Source: a virus
Length of the DNA: 64,000 nucleotides
Direction: 5' to 3' (one strand)
IMG/VR virus record: IMGVR_UViG_3300047462_000185
Span: 1-64,000 of that record
Shown here: piece by piece, positions 501 through 16,757 of the stretch
Layout of the letters: each line of letters begins with the position of its first letter
Position numbering within the stretch: the first letter of the stretch is position 1
The notes under the pieces: model-generated
Told to the model about the DNA's origin: nothing
The model's input: the letters and a program-made list of their open reading frames with translations, nothing else
Database searches by the model: none
Made by a program: the position numbers and the translations under genes

Positions 501-731
501 ATGATCTCGCTCTGGCGCACCGCGCTCACCTCCAGGGACAATCAGTCCGGCGATATCGGCCGCATCTCCCTAGCACTCCTGCTCACCACCTATTGCTGCC
601 TTGAGATCTACAGTGTGGTCTGGCTCAAGCAGCCATTCAGCGAGATGCAATTCGCCACGGCAGGCGCCGCTCTCGTGGCGGGCTGCTCGGCAGGGCTGCG
701 TCTGAAGGCCTCCACCGAACCGGGCAGCTGA
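501..731 (+). CDS. Small two-TM membrane protein, possible holin
   Basis: 76 aa with two hydrophobic segments and a charged C-terminus (LRLKASTEPGS); TGATG overlap with the next gene. Confidence 0.5.
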   Translation: MISLWRTALTSRDNQSGDIGRISLALLLTTYCCLEIYSVVWLKQPFSEMQFATAGAALVAGCSAGLRLKASTEPGS

Positions 732-2731
732 TGCTGGTCAAGCACGAGGCCGGCAAGCCGCTCAGCGATGCGGAACGCAAGCAGCGCCGCGACGCGGCAC
801 GGGCGCGCTGGCACGTCGGCCTCGTCGCGACAGGCGCTGCTGTCGGCGCGGCTGCCGGTGCTGGGCGTGCCGCGGCGCGCACCGCGATCACGAGCCAGAA
901 CGAGATCGTGGCCCGCACCCGCGCCGCCGGCGTGCATGCGGCAGAGACAGCCGCCGCGGCCGAGCGTCGCATCCAGGAACGCGCAGATCGGCGCAACGCC
1001 GCGATCCGCGAGGCGTTTCGGTTTCGCAGGCGCGCAAACCCAGAGACGCAGCGCGAGCGCCAGCAGCGCTTTGGGCGCACCCTCGAGGAGGCCCGAAAGC
1101 CGGATACTGCAGCGGCGCGCCGCACCGTGCCGCCCGTCATCGGCACGCCCGAAAATGCGCGCATTTACGACTACCAGATCGCCTCTGCGCAACTGAAGCT
1201 GGGTGCCGAGCAGCGCTACCTTGCGCGCCTCAAGCAAGCCGAGCAGGACGCGTTCGACGGCAAGGACGTGCAGGCGCCCGAGCCGCGTCTGGTCCGCGCC
1301 ATCACCCAGCGCGTGGCGCGCCTGCAGCGCGACCTCGATGAGCTGAACCGGCTCAAGGCGCGCGCGCACGACAAGATCGTGCGGCGGGGCACCACAGCAA
1401 CCCGCCGGGGCAAGTCCGTCGATGTGCGGCCCACCACGACCGACCAGTTCCGCGGCGGCGAAACACTGCGCCAGCGCAAGAACCGCATCCTTGGTGCCAA
1501 GCGCGAACTCGCGGCCAAGGAGCGCAAGGTGTTGGACCAGTCGGCCCGCACGACAGCTGCGCTGCGCACCAGGGCCCGTGAGACTGCCTTCGAGGACGCT
1601 GGGGAAGCTGTCAGGCGGGCCTTCGTGCAGGGCCGCTACGGGAGCCGCATCGCCCGTGCCGCCGGGCGTGCCGGCCTCGTGGGGGCCGGAATCGGGGCCG
1701 CCGTCGGCGCCGGTGTGGCCGGCGCACACTGGCTCGCTACCCGGCGGGTCGAGAAGCTGGCCAAGGCCGCACCCGATGAGCCGGAAGATCCGATCGAGGT
1801 CGAGCGGAAGATCGCGGTCGAGCTGGCCCGCGTGTTCCAGGGCTGGATCAAGCAGATCTCTGACGAGACACCGACCATCAAGCTGGAGCAGGACCTGGGC
1901 CGCGCCCTGGCGCCGCTGGCCGACGTGTTCCGTGACGGCGCGAAGAAGCCGCCGATCGACGCCGGCGCGTCCGACCCCCGCGTGATCGAGTTCGACTTCG
2001 ACAAGATGAACCCAGCGGTGCGCCAGCACATGCAGGACTACACGCTGAACCGGATCCGTGAGATCTCCGACGAGCAGCGCGACGCGGTCCGTGCCGTGCT
2101 TCAGGGTGCCATAGCCGACGGCGCCGCACCTGCCACGATGGCGCAGCAGATCAAAGAGACGATCGGCTTGACCGTGGCCCAAGCTGCTATGGTCCAGACG
2201 TTCCGCAAGCAACTGGACGCGCTCGATCCGAACGCGCTGAACCGCCAGTTGCGCGACAAGCGGTTCGACCGGACCGTCCAGAAGGCGATCGACACCGGCA
2301 CACCGCTGTCGGACGCCCAGGTCAACAAGATGGTCGACGCGTATCACCGTCGGTTCGTCGCGTTGCGCGCCATGACGATCGCGCGGACCGAAGCGCTCCG
2401 AGCCGCGAACTACGGCAACCTGGCCGGGATGCGCCGCTTCCTGGAGGCGCACCCAGACTTCACAGTCATCAAGACCTGGAAGGCGACCGAGGACGAGCGG
2501 ACCCGCGAGACGCACCGCGAGCTCGACGGGCGCCAGGTCCTGGGGATCGACACGCCGTTCCTGACCGGCACGGGCGACACGATCCGCTGGCCGCACGACG
2601 ACACCGCGCCTGCGCGAGAGGTCGTCAACTGCCGCTGCACCCTGCAGTTCGTGGTCATCCCGAAGTCCACCGCCGTGTCCCGCTTCCTGACCGCCGATCA
2701 ACCCATAGCACCGTGGAGACCAAAGCCATGA
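731..2731 (+). CDS. Phage Mu F-like (SPP1 gp7 family) minor head protein with long Arg-rich N-terminal extension
   Basis: C-terminal RAMTIARTE...KTWKATEDERTRETHRELDG...WPHD...VNCRCT signature of MuF. Confidence 0.9.
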   Translation: MLVKHEAGKPLSDAERKQRRDAARARWHVGLVATGAAVGAAAGAGRAAARTAITSQNEIVARTRAAGVHAAETAAAAERRIQERADRRNAAIREAFRFRRRANPETQRERQQRFGRTLEEARKPDTAAARRTVPPVIGTPENARIYDYQIASAQLKLGAEQRYLARLKQAEQDAFDGKDVQAPEPRLVRAITQRVARLQRDLDELNRLKARAHDKIVRRGTTATRRGKSVDVRPTTTDQFRGGETLRQRKNRILGAKRELAAKERKVLDQSARTTAALRTRARETAFEDAGEAVRRAFVQGRYGSRIARAAGRAGLVGAGIGAAVGAGVAGAHWLATRRVEKLAKAAPDEPEDPIEVERKIAVELARVFQGWIKQISDETPTIKLEQDLGRALAPLADVFRDGAKKPPIDAGASDPRVIEFDFDKMNPAVRQHMQDYTLNRIREISDEQRDAVRAVLQGAIADGAAPATMAQQIKETIGLTVAQAAMVQTFRKQLDALDPNALNRQLRDKRFDRTVQKAIDTGTPLSDAQVNKMVDAYHRRFVALRAMTIARTEALRAANYGNLAGMRRFLEAHPDFTVIKTWKATEDERTRETHRELDGRQVLGIDTPFLTGTGDTIRWPHDDTAPAREVVNCRCTLQFVVIPKSTAVSRFLTADQPIAPWRPKP

Positions 2732-3759
2732 CCCAGACCGCTGTCGCCACTGCCGACCGGCAGTATGGCGCCCTGCAGAAGATGATCGACGTGGCGAACA
2801 CGCCCGAGGCGAAACAGCGCCTGATGTTCAAGGTCGCGATGTATCGCGCCGACATCAACAAGGCGCAGGCCCAGTTCGAGCAGATGTCCAAGGCGATGAA
2901 GCCGGCCGAGGCCCAGACCGTGATGAAGGGCGCGCTCCAGAAGTGGATCGACGCGGGCGACGGCGAGCTGAAGAAGGCCGTGGCGCAAGGCGTGTTCGGC
3001 CATATGTCGAACGTCGGCAAGCCACCGGCCGGCGAGCATGGCACCCCGGTAGCGGGACGGATCACCGGCAAAGACGATGGCGGTGTGCCGCGCATCGGTG
3101 CCAAGCATCAGAGCGTCAAGGGCAACATGAGCCGGTCCGAGACGACAGGCGGCAAGGGCACGGTCGACCCGGTGGAGCGCGCCGAACATGAGCGTGGCCC
3201 GGAAGAGGACGAAATCCTGGCGCCCGACAGCGAGGATTTCGACTACGAGGGCGTCGAGGACGGCGAGACCGAGACGGTCGGCCATCCAGGTGACGACGAA
3301 GGCGAGGACGAGGGCGACATGAGGCGCAAGAAGGCCCGCGCCAAGCTCGCCGCCGGCGCCGGCAAGATCAAGGTCGGCCAAGCGTTTGGTGGCAAGGTCG
3401 GCCAGAAGGAGCCAATGCCGGCCAAGAAGGTCACTCTTGCGGTCGAGCTGGTGAAGATCGCTCCGGACGCGATGATCGATGTGCTGACCAAGTTGGCGCC
3501 GGCCGACAAGGTGGCGATGCTGACCAAGGCGGAGCGCTACGCGGCAGACCTGATGGCATTCATCGACGGGGCGCGCGAGGCCGGCCTGAGCAAGCGCGAT
3601 ATCAGCCGGTCGGTCAGCGAGTGGATGCGGGGCGGCGACGTGCTGACCAAGAAGTTCACCGCCGAGGCACTCGCCGGCGCCGGGCAGATCCCGCTCCAGC
3701 TCGGCAATATGGTCCTTGCCTGGGAGGGCCGGTCGGCGGGACGCGGCCCTTTCGGCTGA
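2728..3759 (+). CDS. Hypothetical head-module protein with acidic central tract
   Basis: ATGA overlap with the MuF stop, GGAG upstream, strong GC3 bias. Confidence 0.75.
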   Translation: MTQTAVATADRQYGALQKMIDVANTPEAKQRLMFKVAMYRADINKAQAQFEQMSKAMKPAEAQTVMKGALQKWIDAGDGELKKAVAQGVFGHMSNVGKPPAGEHGTPVAGRITGKDDGGVPRIGAKHQSVKGNMSRSETTGGKGTVDPVERAEHERGPEEDEILAPDSEDFDYEGVEDGETETVGHPGDDEGEDEGDMRRKKARAKLAAGAGKIKVGQAFGGKVGQKEPMPAKKVTLAVELVKIAPDAMIDVLTKLAPADKVAMLTKAERYAADLMAFIDGAREAGLSKRDISRSVSEWMRGGDVLTKKFTAEALAGAGQIPLQLGNMVLAWEGRSAGRGPFG

Positions 3760-3926
3760 GGAAGAGCTTTTCCGAGGGCGCGATGCATGCCCTCGGGAAC
3801 GCGATCGGCATCATCGAGCGCCAGGCCGCGCGGCGCGCGAAGCCGAAATCTTCCCGGCACCACCTGATTGCCGGCTATCGCGTCGGGCGCGGCCTGCCCG
3901 CGAAGAAAGGGTTCACCGCGCCATGA
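3756..3926 (+). CDS. Short basic ORF, either independent (ATG 3783) or a -1 frameshift extension of the upstream gene
   Basis: Fills the gap exactly; its TGA overlaps the protease ATG (ATGA 3923-3926). Confidence 0.45.
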   Translation: MRKSFSEGAMHALGNAIGIIERQAARRAKPKSSRHHLIAGYRVGRGLPAKKGFTAP

Positions 3927-5170
3927 ACATGTCGCTGACGATGCCGCCGAAGGGCGCGATGCAAATCTTCGTCCCGCTCTGCAAGATCGACGAGGAGAAG
4001 CGCCTGGTCTATGGCATTGCCGCAGTCGAGAAGCCGGACAAGGCTGGCGAGATCATGGACTATGCCACGGCCAAGCCGGCCTTCACCGAATGGTCGAACA
4101 GCTTCTCGAATGCCACGAACGGCATGTCCAAGGGCAATGTGCGCGTGATGCATAACCCGAAGTTGGTCGCGGGCAAGCTGACCGACATGACGTTCGACGA
4201 CGACAACAAGGCGGTCCATGTCTGCGCGAAGATCGTCGACGACGCCGAGTGGCAGAAGACGCTGGAGGGCTGCTACACCGGTTTCTCGATCGGCGGCGGC
4301 TATGGCAATTGGTGGGCCGATGGCGCCTTGAAGCGCTACACGCCGAAGATCGCCGAGATCAGCCTGGTGGACAGCCCGTGCATCCCGGGCGCGCGCATCA
4401 TCGAGCTGCAGAAGGCGGACGGCAGCGTGACGGAGATCCACGCGACCGGCCGTGCCCCGCTGACCTACGGGCAGATGGTGCCGCCCAAGACCTATGGCGA
4501 TTTGGCGAAGGGGTTGGGTGGCATCGCGCGCATGGCGGGTCGGGGCGCCCTGAATTACTTCGACAGGGCTGGCGATATTGGCGAAAATATTGGAAGTTAC
4601 GCAGGCGGCCACATCGGAAATTTCGCCGGCAGAGCCGCAGCAACCGCGCCAGCCGTGGCTGCTTATGTTGGTGCGAAAAACCATGTCAGTGCAGCGTTAA
4701 GCGACCGTAAGCGCGACGAGCACGGCCGCTTCGCCGCTAAAATCGATGGCGCCTACGAAATGCGCAAAGGTCTGGGCGGTTTTGCGCGGATCGCCGGCCG
4801 CATCGAGCGCGAGGCTGTGCATTCGCCGCGGCTGGGCACCCCGGTTCGCCCGCGCATCCAGAGCGAGGGCCGATTCTCGGCGCGGCTCGGCAGCGGTATG
4901 GAAGATGCCAAGTCGCGCGACGCATCCGGCGCGACACATGCGCCAAGAAAGACAGGCCGTGGTCGCCTGATCACCGAACACGAGGTGCGCGCCGCGGCTC
5001 GCTCCGGCGCGGTTGGTGCAGGCATCGGAGCGGCCGCAGGCTATGGTGCTGGCCGCCGCGCCAAGCCCTTCGCCAGCACGGTCGAGCCGGACGAGCATCG
5101 CCGCGATGAGCATGGTCGCTTCGCCCACAAGATCGATGGCGCCCACGAGTTGAGCAAGCGCCGTGTCTAA
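3923..5170 (+). CDS. Prohead serine protease (XkdF/HK97-like) with C-terminal repeated cassettes
   Basis: KIDEEKRLVYGIA...PDKAGEIMD...NVRVMH...AGKL...YTGFSIGG...EISLVDSPC motifs (His and Ser catalytic contexts); head-module position. Confidence 0.85.
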   Translation: MNMSLTMPPKGAMQIFVPLCKIDEEKRLVYGIAAVEKPDKAGEIMDYATAKPAFTEWSNSFSNATNGMSKGNVRVMHNPKLVAGKLTDMTFDDDNKAVHVCAKIVDDAEWQKTLEGCYTGFSIGGGYGNWWADGALKRYTPKIAEISLVDSPCIPGARIIELQKADGSVTEIHATGRAPLTYGQMVPPKTYGDLAKGLGGIARMAGRGALNYFDRAGDIGENIGSYAGGHIGNFAGRAAATAPAVAAYVGAKNHVSAALSDRKRDEHGRFAAKIDGAYEMRKGLGGFARIAGRIEREAVHSPRLGTPVRPRIQSEGRFSARLGSGMEDAKSRDASGATHAPRKTGRGRLITEHEVRAAARSGAVGAGIGAAAGYGAGRRAKPFASTVEPDEHRRDEHGRFAHKIDGAHELSKRRV

Positions 5171-5285
5171 GCCGCCGCACATCCCACCGATCGTCCTGCT
5201 CGGTCTGTTCAGCCTGTTCCTGATGATCGGGTTCTATATGGTGATCGGCGAGATCGTGTCCGGCACGATGATGCCCGGAGCCTAA
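5163..5285 (+). CDS. 40-aa single-TM membrane peptide
   Basis: GTG start overlapping the protease end; MSKPPHIPPIVLLGLFSLFLMIGFYMVIGEIVSGTMMPGA. Confidence 0.45.
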   Translation: MSKPPHIPPIVLLGLFSLFLMIGFYMVIGEIVSGTMMPGA

Positions 5286-5289
5286 CGCC

Positions 5290-5622
5290 TCACCGATAGA
5301 CGCAGACCAGCGATCCCGACGATCGCAACACGGTCTTGTTCATGTCGCAGACCGTGGCGGCCAGCCCGACCGGCGGCGGCGGCCCGTGCTCGATCATGGC
5401 GAGCATGTCGTTGAACGTCAGCTGATCGCCCGGCAAACAGGTGCCTCGTATCTGCGACACGATCTCGGTTCCCGACGGCTCGAAAGTGCGGACCATGTTG
5501 ACCACGCATGCGCCATTGGTCCGGGAGTTGTGATACGAAGTCTCGACCGGCTGAATAGCGGGTTGCGGCGCTGCGCAGCCAGCCAGAACAAGCGCAAATA
5601 TCGTCAGGTTTAGACTTCGCAT
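5290..5622 (-). CDS. Lipoprotein (moron-like)
   Basis: Signal peptide with lipobox LAGC; AGGAG upstream; opposite strand to the late operon. Confidence 0.75.
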   Translation of the reverse strand: MRSLNLTIFALVLAGCAAPQPAIQPVETSYHNSRTNGACVVNMVRTFEPSGTEIVSQIRGTCLPGDQLTFNDMLAMIEHGPPPPVGLAATVCDMNKTVLRSSGSLVCVYR

Positions 5623-5640
5623 TCTCGTCTCCTTACAACG

Positions 5641-5671
5641 AAAAACGCCGCACCCCGAAGGATGCAGCGCC
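5641..5671 (-). terminator. Intrinsic terminator
   Basis: Minus strand GGCGCTGCATCC-TTCG-GGGTGCGGCG followed by TTTTT. Confidence 0.65.
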
Positions 5672-5880
5672 TAGTCTTTCGGCCACAAATTGAAGCGGTT
5701 CATGACTTCGGTTGATCCAAAGCCAATCAGGACAAGCAACCAAACCGGGACAAGCCACCAAACCAAGAAGAAAATCGCGAAAACGAACAGCAATACACCA
5801 GCCAGCTGTCCGAAGAAGGACAAATCTTCATCGCTTTTGTATCCGGCGTGATTGTTGTTGGTTTCGGGCTTCTTCTGCAT
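5671..5880 (-). CDS. Small hydrophobic membrane protein (moron-like)
   Basis: GGAGG RBS, long hydrophobic stretch, lower GC than flanks. Confidence 0.65.
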   Translation of the reverse strand: MQKKPETNNNHAGYKSDEDLSFFGQLAGVLLFVFAIFFLVWWLVPVWLLVLIGFGSTEVMNRFNLWPKD

Positions 5881-5964
5881 TTTCCCTCCACACACGATCA
5901 TGTGGGAACTCAGCACCGTAACGGCTAGCGGCGGTGATCTGCAACCCTGGAATGAGGAGAGGCC

Positions 5965-8900
5965 ATGGCTCTGCCGAATCCTCACTTCGATGCCTCGGTG
6001 ATCGGCGCGTTGCGCCAGCGTCTCGTGGCGCACAACCAGGCGCTCGCCAAGCGGGACGACAGGCTCACCCTAGGCAAGATGAAGGGGCTCTATCGGCGCT
6101 TCTACCATGGCAGCGATGATCCGCACGTCGCTGCCCTGATCCGGATCGACAGCCACCTCGCCAAGTTGCGTAAGGCCGAGTTCGACGCGGATGACCATCC
6201 CCGCGGCGCTGGCGGCAAGTTCCGCTCGAAGGGCGGAGCGAGAGCTGGTGCATTCTACCCGGCAACCCGCGATCAGCACGAGGCGCTGAAAGACGAGAAC
6301 TACGGTTATCGCCAAAACCAAACCGCGATCATTCCCGAGACGCGCTACGAGACGCTCGGACCTCCCGCTGCCACAGCGATCGGTGTGGGAGCAGGTGCTA
6401 TCCAGGGCGCTCTGTTCTCGACCCCAAAGGGAGACGCAGTCGATCGCGTTGTGGGGCGTTTCGGCCGCGGATTGGGATGGCTGGCAGGTGATATCGCGGG
6501 TCGCGCCACAATCGGAGCACCTGTTGTCTTGAGCGCGAAGGCAGCGAGACTTGGAATCGGAATGATCAACCGTTCTACCGGTTCTCGATTTCCGCGACCA
6601 AAACCAGATGCGGGCAAAAAATATTTGGCAGCGGGAGCCAAGATCGGCCGTCGTGCTGGACAACAAGTAGGCGGCCTTGCAGGAAAAGCCACTGGGCAGC
6701 TTGCTTCCATTCCGGCGTGGGCAACACGTCGAGCAATCGCAGGAATGATACCAGGTCGCCGCGGCAAATTGATTGCCGCACTCGCTGGGGGTTCGGTCGG
6801 CGGCGTTTTTCCAGGCTATTACGCCTATGGGCACTACCTCAACGCTGGCGTCTCATCGATCGCCCCTTTCATCGACGCGATGTTCCCGCGCCATGTCGAA
6901 AAGGCATTCGGCGCCGACATCGCCGCGCTCCTGACGGACTCCGAGGTGCTGGCCAAGCGCGACGCCGTGCTCGGCCTAGCCGGCGGCAACGACGTGTTGG
7001 AGAAGGCGCTGGGCGCCGAGATTGTGCGACGCGCCGTTCGGTTGATCGGCACCAAGGCCCGCGGCGTCGTCACCAGCAACGCGACCCAGGTGCCGCGCAA
7101 GTTCCGCATGTCGGCCGCGGGGCGCGCCGCCGTCACGGCCAGCGGTGGTGCGGTCGGCTCGATCGCCGGCGCCGCCGGCGGGGCCGCGGTTGGAGCCGGG
7201 CGGGCCATCTGGTCGGAGTTCAACGAAAAGCATCCCCGCGACGAGCGCGGGCGCTTCGCGCATGCCAATTCGGGTCGCGCCATCGCCCATGCCGCCGTGG
7301 TGGGGGCAGCGGTCGGCAGCGGGATCGGCCTGCTGGGCGGGCGCTACGCGGCGCGCCGGTTCGAAACCCGCCTGGCACGCAATGCCCTGGAGACGCATTT
7401 CTCGGCCGAAAACGTGCAGCGGATGCACAGCGACCTCGCCGCCAAGGTCAAGGAGCGCGTCGCGGATCGCTTTCTGGATGGGATGCACGACCCCGACAAA
7501 ATGCATGCCGAGGCGCTCGCAGCCGCGGCCCGAAACAAGACGGAGAAGTCTGAAGCGGCTGAGTTCGGGCGCGCCGCGTCGCACCTGGCGCGTCACCGTC
7601 CCTCCCTGCCCGAGACGATTCCTGTCGCACCTGGCGCGGACATGCATGGCACGGTGCGGGCCTCTCTGGCGCGCGCCGCCAGGGTGCGGTTCGACGCCAC
7701 GATAGGGCGCGCCGCCACATCGCCGATCAGCTGGATCACGCACCAGCTCGACGAGGGGTTCGACACCGAGTTCCGCAAGGGTATGTCGGCGCTCGGCGAA
7801 AAGATGCCGATGTTCGCCAACGCCAAGGGCGCCAAGGCGAACCTGATCAACAACGTCGATCCGGAGCAGCTCAGCCCCGAGGCCCGCAAGCTGTGGGACG
7901 GACTGGTGGCGCGCCGGACCAAGACGCTGGATGAGGTCAAGGAGACGCTACACCGCCGCACCGGCGATATGCAGGGTGCCCAGAAGACGCAACGTGAGTT
8001 GCAGCGCAAGGTAGATGCACTGGCGGCGAAGCGGCAGCATGTCGAATACCGGGGCGCCGAACTGATCGATGACGACGAAGCCGATCCGGCCGAGTTGCGT
8101 GCCTTCCTGAAATCCGAATTCGGCATCGAGTCGAAGGTAAGCAAGCGTCTCGCGCCAGAGGCGCAGCTCAAGGCGCTCAAGACCGAACTGCATAGCGCGA
8201 TCACACAGTTCGACGCCTCGGCCAAGACAGAGATCGAAGACATGACGCGCGACCTGGAGGACGCCAGGGAGCAGGTCAACCATCTGTCATCCGATATCCA
8301 CGGCGATCTGCGGCCCGCCGAGCGCGAGGCGATCCGCAACCCGTTCGCCACAGGCAAGAAGTCGCCGTTCTTCGAGCCGGTCCCGACCCGGGAAGAGCTT
8401 GAATTGATGCGCCAGGTCGCGATCCGGCGCGATCCGACCGTGCGCGCGTTCGACACCGTGACAGAGCAGCGCATCCGCGACGCCGGCAAGCGGCTCGGTA
8501 GCATCCTAGCGACGCAGAAGAAGGCGCTGGAGCGCCGGGGCCGCGCCGGCCTGACGGATGCCGGGGCGCACTGGATGCGCCGCGCCACGCCTATCCTGGC
8601 CCAGCATCTCGATGATGCGATGGCCGACCTGCACGCGCTGCGCGAGACGATGGTGGGCAATCGCGAGCCGAAGGGCTTCCTGCATTGGGTGCTGTTCGAC
8701 CGCGACATGAAGACCGCGGGCGCCTGGATGAAGGCTCAGGCCAAGAAGGCCCACGATTTCGGCGAGAAGATCGGCGGCGCGGCCTGGAACAACAAGGCGA
8801 AGATTGTCGGCGCGCTGGGCGTGGCCGAGGCGATCGGCGGCGTGTCCTACGACGACAAGACAGGCACGAAGGTGACGCTCAACCCGCTGAAATGGTCGCT

Positions 8901-10746
8901 GCCGCGCGGCCTGAAGGTCGAGGCGAGTAACCCAGATCCGTTCAACAAGGACAAAGGCCTGGTCGGCGTCACCTATCGAGCGCGCGACGGCAAGCGCCGG
9001 TTCCTGGTCGGCGCCTATGACGACGGACAGCAGGTCGGTGAAGGCAAGCCACGCCCGCGCCGCGACATCGCGTTCAACGCCGAACTAGAGCAGGTCCGCG
9101 AGCGTGTCCGCCAAGGCGGTCAGGGCGGCGGGGCGCAGGGCCAGGGTGGGGGCGCCCGCGCTGAGCCGGTCCTGCCGGACGACAAGCGCCAGGAGGCTAT
9201 CACCGCAGTGGCCACGCTCAAGGCCCACGGCAAGATCAGAGACGGCGGTTCGGGCGACTGGACCTATCAGCACAAGGAGGGTGCCGATTACGGCCGGCTC
9301 CAGAACGAGGTGCGCACCGCGTTCATTGCCAAGCACAACCAGCGCTGGAATTTCGCGAAGGACAAGCGTCCATACAACCCGGTCGCCTATTTCAGCGCGC
9401 TCCACGATCTCTTCGAGGCGCCCGAAACCGCGCTACTTTCGACCCAGAACAGGGCCGACATCCTGACCGGCAAGGGCATCAACCACGGCATCATGGCGTG
9501 GAACCCGGCCTATGACGGGCAGAACAAGGGGCAGGTCAAACAGGCGCTCCTTCAGGAATTCGCTGGTCAAAGTAACGATGTGCATGTCATCCGTGGCGAG
9601 TCCGACAAGAAGCAGGTGTTCCGCGCGATCGACGTGCTTGGCAAGCATTACGGCCTCGACGGCAGCGATGTGGGCCAGATCCAGGCCGCGGTCGAACAGA
9701 AGATGTCTGGCCACCCGGTCCGCGAAGGCCGTCCACAAGGACAGAGCAACCAGCCGCGTCAGGAGCAGCCACGCGCGCAGAATCGCATCGATCCCAAGAA
9801 CCTGGCCGATGAGCTTTGGCGCGACGGCCATCGCGGCAATCACACGGACCAGGAAAGTTTCCGAAGCATCGTGGCGAAGGCCTACGAGATTAAGCTCGGG
9901 GAACTGAAGCGTGCCGGCAAGGAAGGCCGTGCCGCCGAGATCGAGGCGCTGAACAGCACTGAGCTGAAGTTCAAGGGCTACCAGAAGTCCGACTATGCCG
10001 TCGATCTCCGCAAGGCCGATCTGTGGAGCGCCGAGGAGGGCGACGGCATCAAGCGCGCCGTCGGCATGGGCGCCGGCGATCTCGCTGAGGCCGGGGGCCG
10101 CAAGCTTGGTTCGGGCGCGGGTGGTGGTCCAGATGTTGGGTCAAAGCAGGACAAGCGCTCGTTCTTCGAGCCGGTCCGACTTGGTGGCTCGGTGGGCAGC
10201 TTCGCCGGCGGCGCGGCTGGCTGGACCGGTGCCGAGCGTGCCCTGGCGAGTCGTGCCGCCGGGCGAGCCGCACGTGCGACAGCGGCCGGCGTCATCTCGG
10301 TGCCGCGCCGCGCCAGCGCCGGCATCGCCGGCCGGCTCACCGGCGCGGGCCTCAAGTCTCTCGCGCGAGACGGCGCTGAACACGTGGTCGGGTTCGGCCT
10401 GAAGACGGCCGGCTCGATCCTGGGCGGCGCGGTCGGGCAGATCGGCCTCGAAGCCGCGGCGCGCGGCGCCTACGCATTGGCCGGCAAGAAGGCGCCGGGC
10501 AGCTACGCGCCCAAGATGTCGGGTGGCGAGCAGGTGGCGCGCACCGTCGGCTCAGTGTTGGGACAGGGCGCGGCTGTAGCGCTGGCCCCCGAAACGTTCG
10601 GCGCATCCCTGGCAGCTGGCACAGCCGGCGGTATGGCGGGTGATGCGGTCGGCGGTTGGCTCTACCACCATTTCGCGTCGAACTACGGCAAAGCCACGGC
10701 CAAACACATGGGCCGCTACTTCGCGCCCCCGGCGAAGAGCGCATGA
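5965..10746 (+). CDS. 1593-aa hypothetical head-module protein, putative internal virion/ejection polyprotein
   Basis: GAGGAG RBS; lies between protease and scaffold; Gly-zipper blocks, coiled-coil centre, HPR..G[KR]F motifs. Confidence 0.75.
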   Translation: MALPNPHFDASVIGALRQRLVAHNQALAKRDDRLTLGKMKGLYRRFYHGSDDPHVAALIRIDSHLAKLRKAEFDADDHPRGAGGKFRSKGGARAGAFYPATRDQHEALKDENYGYRQNQTAIIPETRYETLGPPAATAIGVGAGAIQGALFSTPKGDAVDRVVGRFGRGLGWLAGDIAGRATIGAPVVLSAKAARLGIGMINRSTGSRFPRPKPDAGKKYLAAGAKIGRRAGQQVGGLAGKATGQLASIPAWATRRAIAGMIPGRRGKLIAALAGGSVGGVFPGYYAYGHYLNAGVSSIAPFIDAMFPRHVEKAFGADIAALLTDSEVLAKRDAVLGLAGGNDVLEKALGAEIVRRAVRLIGTKARGVVTSNATQVPRKFRMSAAGRAAVTASGGAVGSIAGAAGGAAVGAGRAIWSEFNEKHPRDERGRFAHANSGRAIAHAAVVGAAVGSGIGLLGGRYAARRFETRLARNALETHFSAENVQRMHSDLAAKVKERVADRFLDGMHDPDKMHAEALAAAARNKTEKSEAAEFGRAASHLARHRPSLPETIPVAPGADMHGTVRASLARAARVRFDATIGRAATSPISWITHQLDEGFDTEFRKGMSALGEKMPMFANAKGAKANLINNVDPEQLSPEARKLWDGLVARRTKTLDEVKETLHRRTGDMQGAQKTQRELQRKVDALAAKRQHVEYRGAELIDDDEADPAELRAFLKSEFGIESKVSKRLAPEAQLKALKTELHSAITQFDASAKTEIEDMTRDLEDAREQVNHLSSDIHGDLRPAEREAIRNPFATGKKSPFFEPVPTREELELMRQVAIRRDPTVRAFDTVTEQRIRDAGKRLGSILATQKKALERRGRAGLTDAGAHWMRRATPILAQHLDDAMADLHALRETMVGNREPKGFLHWVLFDRDMKTAGAWMKAQAKKAHDFGEKIGGAAWNNKAKIVGALGVAEAIGGVSYDDKTGTKVTLNPLKWSLPRGLKVEASNPDPFNKDKGLVGVTYRARDGKRRFLVGAYDDGQQVGEGKPRPRRDIAFNAELEQVRERVRQGGQGGGAQGQGGGARAEPVLPDDKRQEAITAVATLKAHGKIRDGGSGDWTYQHKEGADYGRLQNEVRTAFIAKHNQRWNFAKDKRPYNPVAYFSALHDLFEAPETALLSTQNRADILTGKGINHGIMAWNPAYDGQNKGQVKQALLQEFAGQSNDVHVIRGESDKKQVFRAIDVLGKHYGLDGSDVGQIQAAVEQKMSGHPVREGRPQGQSNQPRQEQPRAQNRIDPKNLADELWRDGHRGNHTDQESFRSIVAKAYEIKLGELKRAGKEGRAAEIEALNSTELKFKGYQKSDYAVDLRKADLWSAEEGDGIKRAVGMGAGDLAEAGGRKLGSGAGGGPDVGSKQDKRSFFEPVRLGGSVGSFAGGAAGWTGAERALASRAAGRAARATAAGVISVPRRASAGIAGRLTGAGLKSLARDGAEHVVGFGLKTAGSILGGAVGQIGLEAAARGAYALAGKKAPGSYAPKMSGGEQVARTVGSVLGQGAAVALAPETFGASLAAGTAGGMAGDAVGGWLYHHFASNYGKATAKHMGRYFAPPAKSA

Positions 10747-12296
10747 GCGACTCGGCCGGCACCGGCGGTCCCGGTTTCACGCAAAGCCCAGCAGCCTTCT
10801 CCGGCCTGACCAACACAGATCTGCGGCCCCGTCCCCGCAAAAAGCGTCCCGTGCCTTTGCTCAACACAAGCTTTGTGACCCGGCGCGGCCGGAACAGCAG
10901 GAGTCCTCACATGCGTAAAATCTTCGCCGACAAGCTTGCGCTGCTGAAGACCAGCATCGCCGAGATCAGCAACGCCGCGCCCGAAACACGCGACGCGCTG
11001 CTGGCCAAGTCCTTCAGCGAGTTCGAGGCCGACATCGGCGCGACACTCGATGAAGTCGCGCCCGAGCCGGAGCCGTTGGCCAAAGGGCTGAACCTGATCA
11101 GCAGCCTCGCCACGCTGCTCACCCAGGTCGAGACCACGGTGAAGTGCATCTGCGAGGGCAAGGCCTATCGCTACAGCGACGCCGATGAGGAATGCCCCGA
11201 GCATATCCAACTGGGCCTCCATCACTTCCTCGCGGTCGGCGAGATGGTGCTGCGCGAAATGGTCAACGACCATGTCGAGATGCCGGAAGACGAGATGGAC
11301 GCCGAGAAGGCGGACCGGGCCGGCCAGCTGTTCAAGATCGACAGCGCCGGCACTGTTCTGTTGATCAAGAGCGCACTGCCGGAGAATCTGGTCGGCTTCG
11401 CGCAGGACCCTGCCCTGCTGGCGATCGACCGCATCGAGCTGGGCCGCGACCTCGTCGCGATGGGTGGCGACGTGCTGGTCGCGCTGGACCAGCAGGGCGT
11501 GCTGCCCGACGAGTTGCGCAAGGCCATCCCGCCCGAGATGGGGTCGGACGATGACGCCGGCGACGAGATGGATGGCGACGAGTCGGCCGATGCCGGCGAT
11601 GAGGGTATGGATGACGGCTCTGGCGATGATGGGTCTGGCGATGACGGCGGCGATGGCACCGATCAGATGGACCCGCTCGAGGTCATCGTGCGCCTCGCGT
11701 CCGCCATCATGGTGGTGGGCGGCTCGCTGATCCAGGCTCAGGGCGGCTCAGCGTCGGAAGATGAAGGCGAGATGGGCGGCGAGACCGATGAGGATGGCAC
11801 GGACGAGGCCGACCAAGAGTCGGAGGATACGGGTGGGCCAGGTCCGGCGATCCATGAAGGCGACGATGACGGAAGCACGCCCGAGGGCGAGTCGGGCCAG
11901 GGCGGCACGGACCACACCGCCGATGCGATGCACCGCAAGAACGCGGCGCACCAGTCCGCGCATGGACCGGCGGGGAGCCGCGCCATGTTCTCGGCCGGCA
12001 AGAAGCGCAACCCCGATCAGGCCGAGAAGGTCGCGCCCGGCGGCGCGCTCACCAAGGCGGTCGAGGCACGCATGGGTAAGCTCGAAGAAACGATGGGTGT
12101 GCTGAGCCAGGGCGTGGCCGCGCTCCTGAACCGTCCCGCCGCCGACGACAAGGGCCATTCCGGCATCAGCGCCGCGATCCCGCGTCAGCAGGATGGTCTC
12201 GGCAAAGCAGCCGGTCCCGACATTGCCGAGTTGGCGAAAACCAATCCGGAAGCCGCCGCCACAGCAATGATCCGCACCATCCTGACCGGCCGCTGA
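10743..12296 (+). CDS. Probable capsid scaffolding protein (alternative start 10911)
   Basis: Very acidic low-complexity centre; directly upstream of MCP; ATGA-coupled start at 10743 and AGGAG-preceded ATG at 10911. Confidence 0.65.
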   Translation: MSDSAGTGGPGFTQSPAAFSGLTNTDLRPRPRKKRPVPLLNTSFVTRRGRNSRSPHMRKIFADKLALLKTSIAEISNAAPETRDALLAKSFSEFEADIGATLDEVAPEPEPLAKGLNLISSLATLLTQVETTVKCICEGKAYRYSDADEECPEHIQLGLHHFLAVGEMVLREMVNDHVEMPEDEMDAEKADRAGQLFKIDSAGTVLLIKSALPENLVGFAQDPALLAIDRIELGRDLVAMGGDVLVALDQQGVLPDELRKAIPPEMGSDDDAGDEMDGDESADAGDEGMDDGSGDDGSGDDGGDGTDQMDPLEVIVRLASAIMVVGGSLIQAQGGSASEDEGEMGGETDEDGTDEADQESEDTGGPGPAIHEGDDDGSTPEGESGQGGTDHTADAMHRKNAAHQSAHGPAGSRAMFSAGKKRNPDQAEKVAPGGALTKAVEARMGKLEETMGVLSQGVAALLNRPAADDKGHSGISAAIPRQQDGLGKAAGPDIAELAKTNPEAAATAMIRTILTGR

Positions 12297-12307
12297 TTTT
12301 GCTTGCT

Positions 12308-12327
12308 AATCACATTTTTATGTGATT
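12308..12327. promoter_or_regulatory. Operator-like palindrome AATCACAT-TTTT-ATGTGATT upstream of the capsid gene
   Basis: Perfect inverted repeat; member of the recurring CACAY-N4-VTGTG family. Confidence 0.65.
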
Positions 12328-12472
12328 CGTATTCGACACCATTGAGCGAGCCATGTGCCGCTCCTGCTCGTCGCGCCGGTTGAGCCCCGGCTGATCCGGT
12401 CCGGTCACTGACCAGGCCAAGGGTCCTGCCCGATACGCCGCCCTGGGCAGCGGTGAGCCGAAAGCTCAACTG

Positions 12473-13987
12473 ATGAATACCCCGCAAGACAGTCTGGAGC
12501 TCATCAAGGGCGCCCTGGCGAGTGCTGGCCTTTCCGCAGCCGAAGACGTGCTGGCGAAGGCCTTTCTGCAGCCCACCACAACGCCCACAGGCTTGCAGGT
12601 CTATGACCTCGAAGCCCCGGCAAAGCTGCTCTACCCGGTCCTCACTCCGCTGCGCAACGCGATCCCGCGCGTCGGCAATGGACGCGGCATCCAGGCCAAC
12701 TGGCGCGCCGTGGTCGGCATCAACACGACCGGCGTGATCGGCTCGCTGGGCCAGGGCAACCGCGGCGGCGTGATCTCGACCACCACCAAGGACTACCTCG
12801 CCGCGTTCCGTGGCCTCGGCTACGACGACTATGTGACCTGGGAAGCGGACATGTCCGCCGAAGGGTTCCAGGACCTCAAGGCGCTCGCCGTCCAGGGCCT
12901 GCTTCGCTCGCTGATGATCGAGGAAGAGGCCACCATTCTGGGTGGTAACGGCTCGGTCGCACTGGGCACGCCCTCGACCCCGACCGTCACCGCGATCGGC
13001 TCGGGCGGTTCCATCGCCAACGCGACCACGGTCTATGTCGGCGTCGTCGCGCTGACCCACCAAGGCTGGCGTTCCTCGAACCTGGTCAGCGGTGTGCCTG
13101 GTCTGGTGAGCCGCACCAACGCCGACAGCTCGGTTGACACCTATGGCGGCGGCTCGTCCGCAGCCTCGGCGCTCGGCTCCGTCACCACCTCGGCGTCCAG
13201 CTCGACAGTCACCGCATCCGTCACCCCGATGGAGGGTGCCGTTGCCTATGCCTGGTTCGTCGGCTCGGCCAACAGCGCGGCGTCGTGCTATCTCGCCGCG
13301 ATCACCACGCTCAACTCGGCCGTCTTCACCGCGCTGCCGGCCAACACCCAGCAGGCCCTCAGCACCATCACGGCGGACAACAGCGCCAACTCGCTGTCGT
13401 TCAATGGGCTGCTGTATCTCGCATCGGCTTCGGGCTCGGGTGCCTACTGGGCCGCGCAGCCGACCGGCACGAACGGCACCGGCACGCCGCTCACCGCGGA
13501 CGGGTCGGGCGGCATTGTCGAGTTCGACACGATGCTGCAGTCGTTTTGGACCAACTACCGCCTGTCGCCTTCCGAATTCTGGGTGGGAACGCAGGAGCTC
13601 AACTACCTTCGCAAGAAGGTGCTGGCCAACACCGCGTCCGTGCCGAATCTGGTGCGCTTCACCGTCTCGACGGCGCGCGACCAGCTGCAGGGCGGTCTCG
13701 GTATCCGCGGTTACCTGAACCCGTTCGGCATGGGTCAGGCGGTCGAGATCCCGATCAAGCTGCACCCGAACATGCCGAACGGCACCATCCTGGCCGTCAC
13801 GCATGAGCTGCCCTACTCGCTGTCGGGCGTCTCCAACGTGATCCAGATGAAGCTGCGACGCGAGTATCACCAGCTCGAGTGGCCGCTGCGGTCGCGCAAG
13901 TATGAATACGGCGTCTACATGGATGGCGTCCTGCAGCATTATTTCCCGCCGTCGTTGGGTATGATCACCAATATCGGCGCCGGCTGA
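12473..13987 (+). CDS. Major capsid protein with Ser/Thr/Ala-rich beta-sandwich-like insertion
   Basis: Position after scaffold; YDLEAPAKLLYPVLTPLRNAIPRV near the N-terminus and YEYGVYMDGVL...GMITNIGAG at the C-terminus. Confidence 0.85.
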   Translation: MNTPQDSLELIKGALASAGLSAAEDVLAKAFLQPTTTPTGLQVYDLEAPAKLLYPVLTPLRNAIPRVGNGRGIQANWRAVVGINTTGVIGSLGQGNRGGVISTTTKDYLAAFRGLGYDDYVTWEADMSAEGFQDLKALAVQGLLRSLMIEEEATILGGNGSVALGTPSTPTVTAIGSGGSIANATTVYVGVVALTHQGWRSSNLVSGVPGLVSRTNADSSVDTYGGGSSAASALGSVTTSASSSTVTASVTPMEGAVAYAWFVGSANSAASCYLAAITTLNSAVFTALPANTQQALSTITADNSANSLSFNGLLYLASASGSGAYWAAQPTGTNGTGTPLTADGSGGIVEFDTMLQSFWTNYRLSPSEFWVGTQELNYLRKKVLANTASVPNLVRFTVSTARDQLQGGLGIRGYLNPFGMGQAVEIPIKLHPNMPNGTILAVTHELPYSLSGVSNVIQMKLRREYHQLEWPLRSRKYEYGVYMDGVLQHYFPPSLGMITNIGAG

Positions 13988-14069
13988 TCCTGGCTTCGCC
14001 TGATCGGTCCGTCTCAAACGTGGCGTGGAGGGAAACTTCCACGCCACGACTGTTTTCAGGAGAACTCGA

Positions 14070-14546
14070 ATGCATCTCTTCAAGCTGCGGCCCGGCGTAA
14101 CATCCGTCTCGGTCGACGGTGTCGAATACCGGCCCGACGAAGACGGTTTCGTTCGGATCGACTCGCCATCGCTCAAGGTGCTGGGGTTCCTCTCCACCGA
14201 AGGGCACCGCGCCGCGACCGACGAGGATTTCGCGACGCCACCGGCCGCCGGCTCGGAAGACGACGAGAAGACAGCGCTGCTGGCGCGCATCGAGGCGGCG
14301 GGCGGCAAAGCGGATCGGCGCCGCTCGCTCGCCAACCTGCGCTACATCGCGGCCGAGCTCGAAGCGCCAACACCGCCAGCCGCCGCCGCGGCAGCAGCAC
14401 CAGCAGCACCAGCAGCGGCGCCTGCAACCCCTGCGGCCACCCCGGAGCCGCCGGCGGCTACGCCAGCGCCCACAACAGCCACCACGCCAGCACCGGAAGC
14501 AACGGGCGCCGCTGCCCCGGCCACGCCTGAGTCAGCGGCTACCTGA
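14070..14546 (+). CDS. Hypothetical protein with Ala/Pro/Thr-rich tail
   Basis: AGGAG RBS; usual post-MCP position. Confidence 0.65.
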   Translation: MHLFKLRPGVTSVSVDGVEYRPDEDGFVRIDSPSLKVLGFLSTEGHRAATDEDFATPPAAGSEDDEKTALLARIEAAGGKADRRRSLANLRYIAAELEAPTPPAAAAAAAPAAPAAAPATPAATPEPPAATPAPTTATTPAPEATGAAAPATPESAAT

Positions 14547-14549
14547 TCC

Positions 14550-15143
14550 GTGTCTGGCTCGACCGAAACCGTATCGACGCCCTGGATCACGCTGGCGCAG
14601 CTCAAGGCGTGGCTCAACATCACCGACTCGAGCCAGGACGCCAACCTGACCCCCTTGCTCACCGCGGCGACGCAGGCCTGTATCTCCTATCTGAACCGCG
14701 ACCTGGTGCAGTCCAGCCAGACCGAGACCTATGACGGGCCGGGCAGTTCGATCCTGCCGCTGAACACGTTCCCCATCACCGCGGTGGCGAGCGTGATGAT
14801 GGACGGCCAGCCCGTCGTTCCGGCCGCGTTCAACCAGGCCGGCTATGTGATCGGCAAGTTCTCGCTCCGGGCGAAGGGAATGGTCTGGTGCAAGGGGTTC
14901 CAGAACGTCACGGTCAGCTACACGGGCGGCTATGCCACGATCCCCACCGATGCGGTGCAGGCCTGCCTGCTGGCCGCGTCGGCCATGTTCAACTCGATGG
15001 CGGCTGACCCCAACCTCCAGTCGGAATCGACGTCAGGCGTATTCTCCGGCTCGTTCTGGCAAAGCGGGCCCGGCGCGCTGCCGCCGTCGTCGCGCAGCCT
15101 GCTGATCAACTATCGCAAGGTCTACAGCGGCATCGCGGGGTAA
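14550..15143 (+). CDS. Head-tail connector (gp6-like adaptor)
   Basis: ITLAQLKAWLNI...DANL...YLNR and VTVSYTGGY..IP.D..QAC pattern. Confidence 0.8.
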   Translation: MSGSTETVSTPWITLAQLKAWLNITDSSQDANLTPLLTAATQACISYLNRDLVQSSQTETYDGPGSSILPLNTFPITAVASVMMDGQPVVPAAFNQAGYVIGKFSLRAKGMVWCKGFQNVTVSYTGGYATIPTDAVQACLLAASAMFNSMAADPNLQSESTSGVFSGSFWQSGPGALPPSSRSLLINYRKVYSGIAG

Positions 15144-15149
15144 CGCATC

Positions 15150-15857
15150 ATGATGGGACGCGGCTACTACCTGCAGCGTCGCATCGATGCCCGCTACCAG
15201 CAGCGCGGCTCGCAAATCACGCTGCGGCGGGTCTCCTTCCTGTCAGGCAACAATACGCTGCCCAACCCAGCCATGCTCAAGAATCTCACCGTCGCCCAAG
15301 ACGCGGCCCAAGGTGACGTCACGGTTTCGCTCAGCGCCACCGTGGCGCGGGGACGGCTCGTGCCGGGCGACCAGCTCGTGATGGGCAACGTCACGGCCAC
15401 TGTGGCGCAGCTCCAGGTCAACGACATCACGCTAGAAAGCGGGACCGTTCTCTTCGCCGAAAATGGCGATCAGATCACGCTCGACGGGTCGTTCTCATCC
15501 TATGACCTGCCGCCCTTGCTGACCGACACGCCAGCGGTGAACAATGCTTTTCCGCAGGTCCTGCTGACCGAGCCCTTGTCGGGGCCCGTGAGTGCCGGAA
15601 CCCAGGTGACGATGGTCTGGCAGGCCGACACGACGGTTTATGGCTACATCAACAGCTATGACAACACGATGATCGACGGCCAGCGCATCCAGGCCAATGA
15701 CCTCCAGGTCGGCATTTCCGCGCTCAGCGCCAATCCTGCTGCGCCTCCCACCATCACCGACAAGATCGTCGTGCTGGGCGTCGAGAAGGCGATCCTGAAC
15801 GTGAGCAGCAAGATCAACGACAACCAGCAGCTCGTATGGGTGTGCCAGGTCCGCTGA
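15150..15857 (+). CDS. Head closure/neck protein with internal insertion
   Basis: Position; C-terminal IDGQRIQANDL...VWVCQVR typical of head-closure proteins. Confidence 0.6.
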   Translation: MMGRGYYLQRRIDARYQQRGSQITLRRVSFLSGNNTLPNPAMLKNLTVAQDAAQGDVTVSLSATVARGRLVPGDQLVMGNVTATVAQLQVNDITLESGTVLFAENGDQITLDGSFSSYDLPPLLTDTPAVNNAFPQVLLTEPLSGPVSAGTQVTMVWQADTTVYGYINSYDNTMIDGQRIQANDLQVGISALSANPAAPPTITDKIVVLGVEKAILNVSSKINDNQQLVWVCQVR

Positions 15858-15867
15858 GGAGGTCGCT

Positions 15868-16275
15868 ATGGCGGATTTCTCGGTCGATGTGGCGTCCTGG
15901 GTCGACAAGGCGCTGATGCGGGCCGAACAGGCGTTCCAGGCCACGGCTCAGGGCGCGGTGAACCGGGTCAAGGATCTCACGCCGGTCAAGACGGGCTACC
16001 TGCGCGCCAACTGGACCGCGATTCATGCCGGCGATGCCGAGCCCACCCCTGGCGCGGTGCCAGACGCAATGGATGCGATCAGCAGCGCGCCGCTGGGTAG
16101 CACTCTCGTTGTGCTCAACCCGGTCGTCTATGCGCGACGCGTCGAGTATGGGTTCGTTGGCGAGGACAGCCTGGGGCGGCACTATAACCAGCCAGGGCGG
16201 CACATGACCCAGCAGACCGTGTCCGAGATGCCGTCCATCGCCGAGGCAGCCGTCGAACTGGTTGTCAGCGAGTGA
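15868..16275 (+). CDS. HK97 gp10-like neck protein
   Basis: TPVKTGYLRANW...YARRVEYG motifs. Confidence 0.85.
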   Translation: MADFSVDVASWVDKALMRAEQAFQATAQGAVNRVKDLTPVKTGYLRANWTAIHAGDAEPTPGAVPDAMDAISSAPLGSTLVVLNPVVYARRVEYGFVGEDSLGRHYNQPGRHMTQQTVSEMPSIAEAAVELVVSE

Positions 16276-16694
16276 GTTCGATCGGCATTCAGACCGCGCT
16301 GGATAACGCGATCATCGCGTTTCAGGCGGCCAACCCGCAGTTCGAGTTGGCGCTGGAGAACACACCCTACACTCCCACAAAAGGGGTGATGTATCTCAGC
16401 ACCGCGATCAGCGGGCTCAACCGCCGCAAGATCGCGCTGGGTCCGCAGGCCGTCTCGGTTGCGGAATACATGGGCTACTATCAGGTCAGCGTGAACGGCG
16501 CGATCGACGAGGGCATGGCCGTGCTGCGCGCCGCCGGCGATCTCGTCGCGGACGCGTTTCCGAGCGGCCTGGTCCTGATCGGCTCGGACGGCACACGGGT
16601 GATCATCCAGATCGCCTCCCCGCAATCGGCGATCGAAAACGGCGACTGGGTGACCGTGCCCGTCGCGATCCAGTGGTTCAGCACCGACCCATAG
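16272..16694 (+). CDS. Tail terminator-like protein
   Basis: Position before tail tube; EN..YTP...GYYQVSV...W.TVPV pattern. Confidence 0.7.
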   Translation: MSSIGIQTALDNAIIAFQAANPQFELALENTPYTPTKGVMYLSTAISGLNRRKIALGPQAVSVAEYMGYYQVSVNGAIDEGMAVLRAAGDLVADAFPSGLVLIGSDGTRVIIQIASPQSAIENGDWVTVPVAIQWFSTDP

Positions 16695-16757
16695 GCTGAA
16701 GCGTCAGTAGAGTCCCACATGCCGCTTGGGTAGCGGCGAACAGCAAGGTTTCCGCAC

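Follow-up and report, generated by a model that had tools for sequence, protein, structure and literature searches.

A hydrophobic-x-Lys motif common to the head proteins of an uncultured phage as the predicted cleavage site of its prohead protease

In phage T4, the protease gp21 runs a processing programme in which gp23, gp22, gp67, gp68, IPI-III and Alt are cut at I/L-x-E sites. The herpesvirus assemblin pUL26/pUL26.5 (MEROPS family S21) has a release site and a maturation site, with the consensus (V/L/I)-x-A↓S (the arrow marks the bond cut). In HK97, gp5 is cut at Lys103↓Ser104 by gp4, and the capsid proteins of A511, SPO1 and Twort-like phages are cut between Lys and Ser; to our knowledge, a Lys code acting on many substrates has not been set out for phages of the HK97, A511 or SPO1 type. 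In the giant phage SPN3US, gp245 processes nine proteins, including ejection proteins, at 14 sites in total, and also removes its own C-terminal propeptide (PMC10052503). For phage-type polyvalent proteins with MuF, whose extra module is proposed to enter the head and to undergo processing there, an in-chain MPTase peptidase has been put forward as the processing enzyme (Iyer, Burroughs, Anand, de Souza, and Aravind, 2017; PMC5512222). Here we analyze the head module of an uncultured phage with a G+C content of ~65% (IMG/VR record IMGVR_UViG_3300047462_000185), the window being the first 64 kb (64,000 nucleotides) of its single 106,637-bp contig. We propose, with a probability of roughly 0.7, that hydrophobic-x-Lys, in most cases with Ala, Gly or Ser as the next residue, would be what the prohead serine protease encoded by the phage itself (3923-5170) recognizes.

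Genes were called with a home-made codon-usage model trained on long open reading frames (ORFs). Positions 731-13987 hold six plus-strand genes, and head-tail adaptor, tail and tape-measure genes follow downstream of the capsid gene. The six head genes are (aa, amino acids):

731..2731, plus strand: MuF-like minor head protein, 666 aa (PF04233, PHROG 3517)
2728..3759, plus strand: gp343, head-module protein with an acidic middle (4 motif sites vs 1.5 expected)
3923..5170, plus strand: predicted prohead serine protease, 415 aa (PHROG 9427, fold)
5965..10746, plus strand: basic 1593-aa protein of no known family
10911..12296, plus strand: acidic scaffold-like protein, 461 aa (six motif sites vs 1.0 expected)
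12473..13987, plus strand: HK97-fold major capsid protein, 504 aa (PHROG 13692, E 9e-132)

An initial annotation of this DNA had noted that the motif [LVM]-x-K-[AGS] recurs in the proteins of the module, and all the sites that it quoted were found in place. The six head proteins (3982 aa in total) hold 23 such sites against 9.7-10.1 expected, whether whole proteins or blocks of 20, 40 or 100 residues were shuffled (p ≤ 0.001), whereas all other proteins (24,058 aa) hold 33 against 34 expected, i.e., 11 against 8.3 in the tail and connector proteins and 22 against 24.8 in the remainder. Per 1000 aa this amounts to 5.8 sites in the head proteins, 1.3 in the tail and connector proteins and 1.4 in the rest, an enrichment confined to the head. 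Control motifs (reversed, shifted, or with R, E or D at P1) were not enriched in the head proteins. Given that the motif had been picked post hoc, all gapped triples of the form a.bc were counted without prior choice; L.KA ranked first of the 1032 testable triples in the head proteins (11 vs 2.2 expected, z 5.9) and was slightly depleted in the non-head proteins (5 vs 7.4). In addition to the scaffold and gp343 counts listed above, the protease has 4 sites against 1.1 expected, the capsid 2 against 0.6 and the MuF protein 2 against 1.1. The motif core, as read from these sequences, is hydrophobic-x-K: A, G or S at P1′, as first claimed, is the usual state, and homologues also show L, V, I, R, Q or F there. 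Gln as a second P1 residue ([LVM]xQ[AGS], 15 vs 6.6 expected in the window) was rejected, since its sites lie inside folded domains and are only 1.46-fold enriched in relatives.

The product of 3923-5170 matches PHROG 9427 (‘head maturation protease’, E 2.6e-12). Against PF14550 (Peptidase_S78_2, XkdF) it scores 18.3 bits, below the cut-off of 24, and two of its homologues (P0096, P0132) have a precomputed PF14550 match; by these sequence scores the protease is related to the PF14550 family, yet not a scoring member of it. In an AlphaFold model, residues 20-165 have a predicted local distance difference test score (pLDDT) >90 and confidence is lost afterwards. With this model, ranks 1-3 of a Foldseek search are T4 gp21 (5jbl; probability 1.00, TM on target 0.56-0.58), followed by the proteases of human cytomegalovirus, pseudorabies virus, Epstein-Barr virus and Kaposi's sarcoma-associated herpesvirus. 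H77 (NVRVMH), S122 (GFSIGG) and K164 are invariant in 78 homologues, and H77/S122 are, by conservation, a candidate catalytic pair. The gene lies in the head module near the scaffold and capsid genes. By modeled fold (the class to which T4 gp21, HK97 gp4 and herpesvirus assemblin belong), invariant His and Ser, and gene position, 3923-5170 is identified as the gene of the prohead protease. No literature on the specificity of XkdF-type proteases was found.

The locus resembles the T4 and SPN3US systems in having a protease of the same fold, one short consensus that is predicted to be common to capsid, scaffold, protease and head-carried proteins, and propeptides and tails that are predicted to be removed inside the prohead. 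It differs from T4 gp21 in that P1 is Lys here and Glu there, in that the protease family is XkdF-like (weak PF14550, PHROG 9427) and not S77, and in that the predicted cargo is carried here on the MuF N-terminus, the protease C-terminus and a giant protein. The fold is also a likeness to herpesvirus assemblin, as is the joining of protease and scaffold in one chain in relatives (Polewnik, L005); single chains of this kind were found in Polewnik, L005, L006, L007 and L010. Polewnik, a cultured Brevundimonas phage (vB_BpoS-Polewnik), has such a chain of 593 aa; Strzyga is another cultured relative. Two site positions add to the likeness to assemblin: a conserved one directly behind the protease domain (K164/K196), and one close to where the scaffold ends (LAK↓A toward the chain end in Polewnik; K432 here, 29 residues from the C-terminus). 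Unlike in the herpesvirus system, protease and scaffold are separate genes here, with the 1593-aa gene between them, and the site is hydrophobic-x-K followed by a small residue.

The predicted sites in the individual proteins are:

12548..12562, plus strand: capsid DVLAK29↓AF, predicted maturation site behind a 29-residue propeptide (K29 at 12557)
4403..4417, plus strand: protease ELQK164↓AD, where the protease fold ends (full motif in 64/78 homologues)
4499..4513, plus strand: protease DLAK196↓GL, predicted cut for release of the tail (conserved in ≥90% of 78 homologues)
4757..4771, plus strand: protease EMRK282↓GL, opening the second of the two tail cassettes (K↓GLGG[IF]AR[MI]AGR repeated), less firmly predicted
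1754..1768, plus strand: MuF protein VEKLAK345↓A346, predicted cut between N-extension and MuF domain (K codon 1763-1765)
6163..6222, plus strand: 1593-aa protein KLRK70↓AEFDADDHPRGAGGKF, predicted cut followed by an HPR..GKF tag (K70 at 6172)
6892..6906, plus strand: 1593-aa protein RHVEK313↓AF, predicted cut site (K313 at 6901)
10003..10017, plus strand: 1593-aa protein DLRK1350↓AD, predicted cut before the Gly-rich C-terminal 243 residues (K1350 at 10012)

The capsid site was aligned in 139 family representatives drawn from 50%-identity clusters. At P3, 95% of them have L, I, V, M or F; at P1, 88% have K and 8% R; and at P1′, 88% have A, S, G or T, while P2 is unconstrained and the sequence upstream of the site is gappy and variable; phage and metagenome relatives with 41-53% identity read LAK↓ST, LAK↓AF, LGK↓AT, LRK↓AF and LNK↓NV at the same position. 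In an AlphaFold model of the capsid (pLDDT 89.4, predicted TM score 0.86), K29 is within a linker of pLDDT <50 (residues 19-43), between a helix (4-16) and the body. Given that the site is conserved, that the sequence upstream of it varies, and that it lies in a flexible linker, K29 looks like a maturation site behind a short propeptide. Using Foldseek, the model matched the capsids of Pa223, SU10, SPO1, D3 and HK97; at E ≤ 0.001 it matched 156 PDB chains, those listed being phage capsids and encapsulins, HK97 included. On this model, the capsid is an HK97-fold protein. The fold, Lys at P1 and a small P1′ are shared with the HK97, SPO1 and A511 capsids described above, but a short predicted propeptide (29 aa) and a separate scaffold are found here, vs the delta domain of HK97. 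The comparison with SPO1/A511-type capsids made in the initial annotation extends to Lys at P1 only: SPO1 (9vel) appears only at ranks 8-10 with TM 0.29-0.37, and tblastn gave no herellevirus match. A search of a phage collection at E ≤ 1e-5 related neither the capsid nor the protease in sequence to its HK97, SPO1 and A511 counterparts, and a sequence search of the PDB with either protein gave no match.

The six scaffold sites are at K33, K58, K153, K204, K382 and K432. The scaffold parts of relatives are similarly rich in the motif, with 10 sites against 2.1 expected in Polewnik, 12 against 2.9 in L005, 6 against 0.9 in L002 and 12 against 1.4 in L016. Homology between the separate scaffold of the window and the post-protease part of relatives was only hinted at (LAKGL..[IV]..LA..L...C; BLAST E 0.61, hhalign probability 5.6%). 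An AGGAG lies upstream of the scaffold start at 10911 (ATG). That start is ambiguous: an alternative ATG, at 10743, shares an ATGA with the stop codon of the 1593-aa gene and has atypical codon statistics. Compared with the 1593-aa gene, the scaffold is read in the −1 frame, and the two overlap by ~100 nt.

In the protease, the modeled fold spans about residues 20-165, and the low-confidence, basic, Gly/Arg-rich tail (residues 197-415) is made up of two cassettes. K196 is invariant in eight close homologues, in which everything downstream is unrelated; in P0021 and P0022 an F-DE[ST]RHPR..GKF tag directly follows K196, and in P0020 an F-DESK...GRF peptide, without HPR, is found there. K282 aligns with VAK↓GL of Polewnik and LKK↓GL of L005. 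In 115 homologues, 694 sites were counted behind the protease domain where 181 would be expected (ratio 3.8), whereas the control motifs (reversed, shifted, R/E/D) gave ratios of 0.55-1.36. Among all 8000 triples counted in 114 of these tails, L.KA was again on top (302 vs 49.6 expected), with every one of the 114 above expectation at a median of 4.0-fold. The 78 aligned homologues place 550 sites in 127 alignment columns, the alignment being unreliable in the divergent tails; since 75 of these columns are used by one sequence only, site positions turn over while density stays. The predicted pieces at residues 197-282 and 283-415 have isoelectric points (pI) of 9.8 and 11.4, respectively. Both tail cassettes (4703-4768 and 5093-5167) end in RDEHGRFA.KIDGA.E..K, so that their G-R-F peptide stands upstream of the Lys site, in the opposite order to that in the giant proteins.

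The MuF domain lies at residues 515-638 (PF04233, 48.7 bits vs a cut-off of 29.6; PHROG 3517, E 5.6e-70), behind an N-extension (residues 1-345) of pI 11.6 with 17% Arg and Gly zippers near 31-50 and 314-332. K345 falls exactly between the two. In five MuF homologues (33-61% identity) the junction [LM]AK↓[AV][AS]P..P is constant, with A344, K345, P348 and P351 invariant, while the extensions vary greatly in length and content; the MuF protein of the relative L014 keeps LLAK↓AATPED, and P0013 and P0014 have additional VEKLAK↓ sites after Gly zippers. The view that sites fall at domain borders is accurate for the MuF junction, for the protease (pLDDT drop after 165) and for the capsid linker. 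A leader, LS.A(E/Q)..(Q/E)R..AARARW, is common to MuF residues 10-27 (758-811) and to a second giant protein of 1041 aa (L011:1366-1416), with 10/17 residues identical. It is invariant in the five MuF homologues and turns up again inside P0014, immediately behind a VEKLAK↓ site. The leader may represent another type of tag; its pairwise E-value of 0.18 is not significant alone. Like the polyvalent MuF proteins, this one carries a MuF-linked extra module, and the N-extension of P0013 contains PF18823; unlike in those proteins, the candidate processor here is the head protease and not an in-chain MPTase. Placement among polyvalent proteins is not supported by Pfam or PHROG, in which the 666-aa protein has no domain besides MuF and the 1593-aa protein none at all.

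The 1593-aa protein has Gly-rich ends and a middle of ~1000 aa. Its homologue P0007 is related over the full length (37% identity by BLASTP, 41% in the alignment), as is that of L014 (28%). The contig of P0007, 82 kb long, also holds P0011 and P0016, these three being the closest homologues. The K70 site reads ELRK↓ADGTFDENEHPRGQGGKF in P0007 and ELEK↓ARQPFEGARHPRGRGGQF in L014, with a conserved FD...HPRG.GG[KQ]F peptide after it in both. V-x-K313 is kept as RRVEK↓L in P0007 and RRVKK↓I in L014, and LRK1350 is kept in P0007 with V at P1′; LEK347↓AL, at 7003, is a further match. These sites suggest that the protein is probably trimmed into a leader of 70 residues, a middle of ~1000 residues and Gly-rich parts at either terminus, and not into many small peptides; it is a candidate internal or ejected head protein. 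The predicted pieces have a pI of ~10, in contrast to the acidic pieces of the scaffold. The Gly zippers score 1.6-1.8 on the Kyte-Doolittle scale, i.e., as borderline membrane segments. An alignment of the protein, run against viral and metagenome contigs, found no related locus, and its middle had no match in the ESM Atlas.

The peptide that follows K70 recurs behind other sites. Among the fetched proteins, a hydrophobic-x-K stands 5-11 residues upstream of HPR..G[KRQ]F in 8/9 cases, and the same site-before-tag arrangement holds for 7/8 cases in L014, L016 and L019. In L016, a 110-kb metagenome relative, the protease heads a 1426-aa chain (13280-17560) with four L-x-K↓A[WF].E..HPRD..G.F junctions (WLAK↓RAPFREEEHPRD.., LRK↓AWEESKHPRD.., LRK↓AEFREELHPRD.. 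and LAK↓AWDESKHPRD..), and the ORF next to it begins with a fifth. The 1041-aa protein (genome 101161-104286, L011:1162-4287, outside the window) is basic and Gly/Arg-rich with several Gly zippers, and carries ELAK↓AFDATKHPRGQGGKF; since its L014 counterpart is encoded between portal and MuF, it is probably part of the cargo set too. A search with the pattern FD[AE][DN][DE]HPR and a second pattern matched 600 metagenome stretches. We tentatively suggest, and hold it somewhat less probable than its opposite, that the L-x-K↓ site together with (A)-[FW]-[DE]-x3-HPR-x3-4-G-[KRQ]-F forms a reusable junction that marks any module for prohead loading and release, serving here the basic Gly-zipper modules on the MuF, protease, 1593-aa and 1041-aa proteins. 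The tag would then be a widespread capsid-targeting or protease-docking signal. No description of the HPR..G[KRQ]F tag was found in the literature, and gp343, the scaffold, the MuF extension and the 1593-aa and 1041-aa proteins have no family in Pfam or PHROG.

In the mechanism that we propose, the protease would act inside the assembled prohead. The 29-residue capsid propeptide would be removed at K29↓A30, and the acidic scaffold would be cut at several sites so that its pieces can exit. By cutting at K196, with K164 and K282 as possible further sites, the protease would shed its basic Gly/Arg-rich tail, the 345-residue Arg-rich N-extension would be split from the MuF domain at K345↓A346, and the 1593-aa protein would be trimmed at a few conserved sites (K70, K313 and K1350). 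The basic Gly-zipper pieces would be brought into the head, and set free in it, either by riding on MuF and the protease, which are loaded in any case, or by following an HPR..G[KR]F tag. They might then neutralize the charge of the DNA or, at infection, act on the membrane. Capsid, scaffold, protease and MuF are well-supported predicted substrates, and the 1593-aa protein is a likely one at a few sites. The term polyprotein, used in the initial annotation, suits the protease tail and the MuF protein; it does not suit the capsid, with its 29-residue propeptide, the scaffold, which is probably degraded, or the 1593-aa protein, with 5 sites against 4.7 expected and only K70, K313 and K1350 kept. 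The central idea of one Lys-P1 recognition motif common to capsid, scaffold, protease and MuF stood up, in that the motif is kept or dense in relatives as expected for prohead-protease sites. The features of a multi-substrate cleavage code, a motif common to capsid, scaffold, protease and internal proteins that is both enriched and conserved, are present here.

Several observations weigh against this reading. The 1593-aa protein shows no enrichment of the motif; its K1305 is lost, and its K347 lost or shifted, in homologues, and the gp343 site K267 is lost in the L014 homologue. K164 may be either a release site or a structural residue, and the Q, M or L found at its P1′ in some relatives would suit the latter. 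K282 aligns with an Asp in three relatives (LQD↓AL or IAD↓AL in L006, L007 and L010). The homologues used in the density test share descent, so their counts are not independent events, and the gene calls depend on the home-made codon-usage caller. Conservation of a short motif can, moreover, reflect a role in binding or folding.

Taken further, the last point gives the reading that hydrophobic-x-K-small is an uncut assembly or binding motif, e.g., a helix start in scaffold-capsid or scaffold-portal contacts, and that the capsid keeps its N-terminus. It draws on the equivalent of K282, which opens a conserved helix-like stretch (K↓GL..[VI]A..A) and is the position that is Asp in three relatives, and on the fact that conserved short motifs of N-terminal arms can be structural. 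We consider it improbable, given that the motif is specific for strand and for Lys (neither its reversal nor R, E or D at P1 is enriched), that P2 is free as at protease subsites, that site positions turn over with density kept, that sites occur where homology ends and in flexible linkers, and that the module encodes a prohead protease, which needs substrates. Far less credible is an effect of chance or of the composition of Ala/Leu/Lys-rich helical proteins, picked out afterwards. The motif was indeed set after examples had been seen, and the head proteins contain more K and more A/G/S than the others; but block shuffles that preserve local composition still expect ~10 sites, the unbiased triple count puts L.KA first, and the motif, fixed beforehand, is still enriched in independent relatives, on which grounds this explanation was rejected.

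The site may also be one of the protease and yet be used on the classical substrates only, with the capsid propeptide, the scaffold and the protease tail cut, the MuF and 1593-aa sites unused or their proteins outside the prohead, and no cargo peptides formed. The excess of sites is carried by the scaffold, protease, gp343 and capsid, with no enrichment by count in the MuF and 1593-aa proteins, and the latter, which matches nothing in Pfam, PHROG or, for its middle, the ESM Atlas, is no more than a candidate virion protein. We nevertheless regard this restriction as unlikely, because the MuF junction site is invariant in five homologues whose extensions are otherwise unrelated, because two distant relatives of the 1593-aa protein retain K70 and its tag, and because L016 fuses site-plus-tag units to the protease itself. 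Cleavage by the prohead protease at hydrophobic-x-Lys, an ordinary mechanism with a poorly documented specificity, has the best support. The kind of system is a familiar one, here with a predicted rule for Lys.

If the rule is true, it offers a simple annotation aid for a large and mostly uncultured group of phages, the capsid search having returned 1088 cluster representatives at E ≤ 0.001 and the protease search 240 homologues. It would predict where the mature capsid protein starts, the separation of protease from scaffold, and the additional proteins that are cleaved. It points to basic Gly-zipper polypeptides that may travel in the capsid and suggests MuF and protease as their carriers, with implications for what phages inject in addition to DNA and for the loading of foreign cargo into capsids. 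Since the cut would be after lysine, ordinary tryptic proteomics is blind to it, which may explain why such a code stayed unnoticed.

The portal gene is at genome position 80388-82181 (L012:1389-3182), with ~25 kb between it and the block of MuF, protease and capsid genes. The order found in L014, within ~20 kb, is portal, 1041-like gene, MuF, gp343, protease and giant protein, with a few small ORFs separating the 1041-like gene from MuF. Given that the portal gene sits far off here while L014 keeps these genes together, the head module is split in this contig, either by its arbitrary start or by inserted genes. The protease gene overlaps at its 3′ end with a hydrophobic 40-codon ORF (5163-5285), and ~680 bp of lower G+C, without a convincing plus-strand gene, separate this ORF from the 1593-aa gene. 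On the 3′ side of the capsid gene, 14070-14546 contains a 158-aa ORF with a weak coding score (12.9) and a long Ala/Pro/Thr-rich C-terminal half, and it is either a decoration-like protein or no gene at all.

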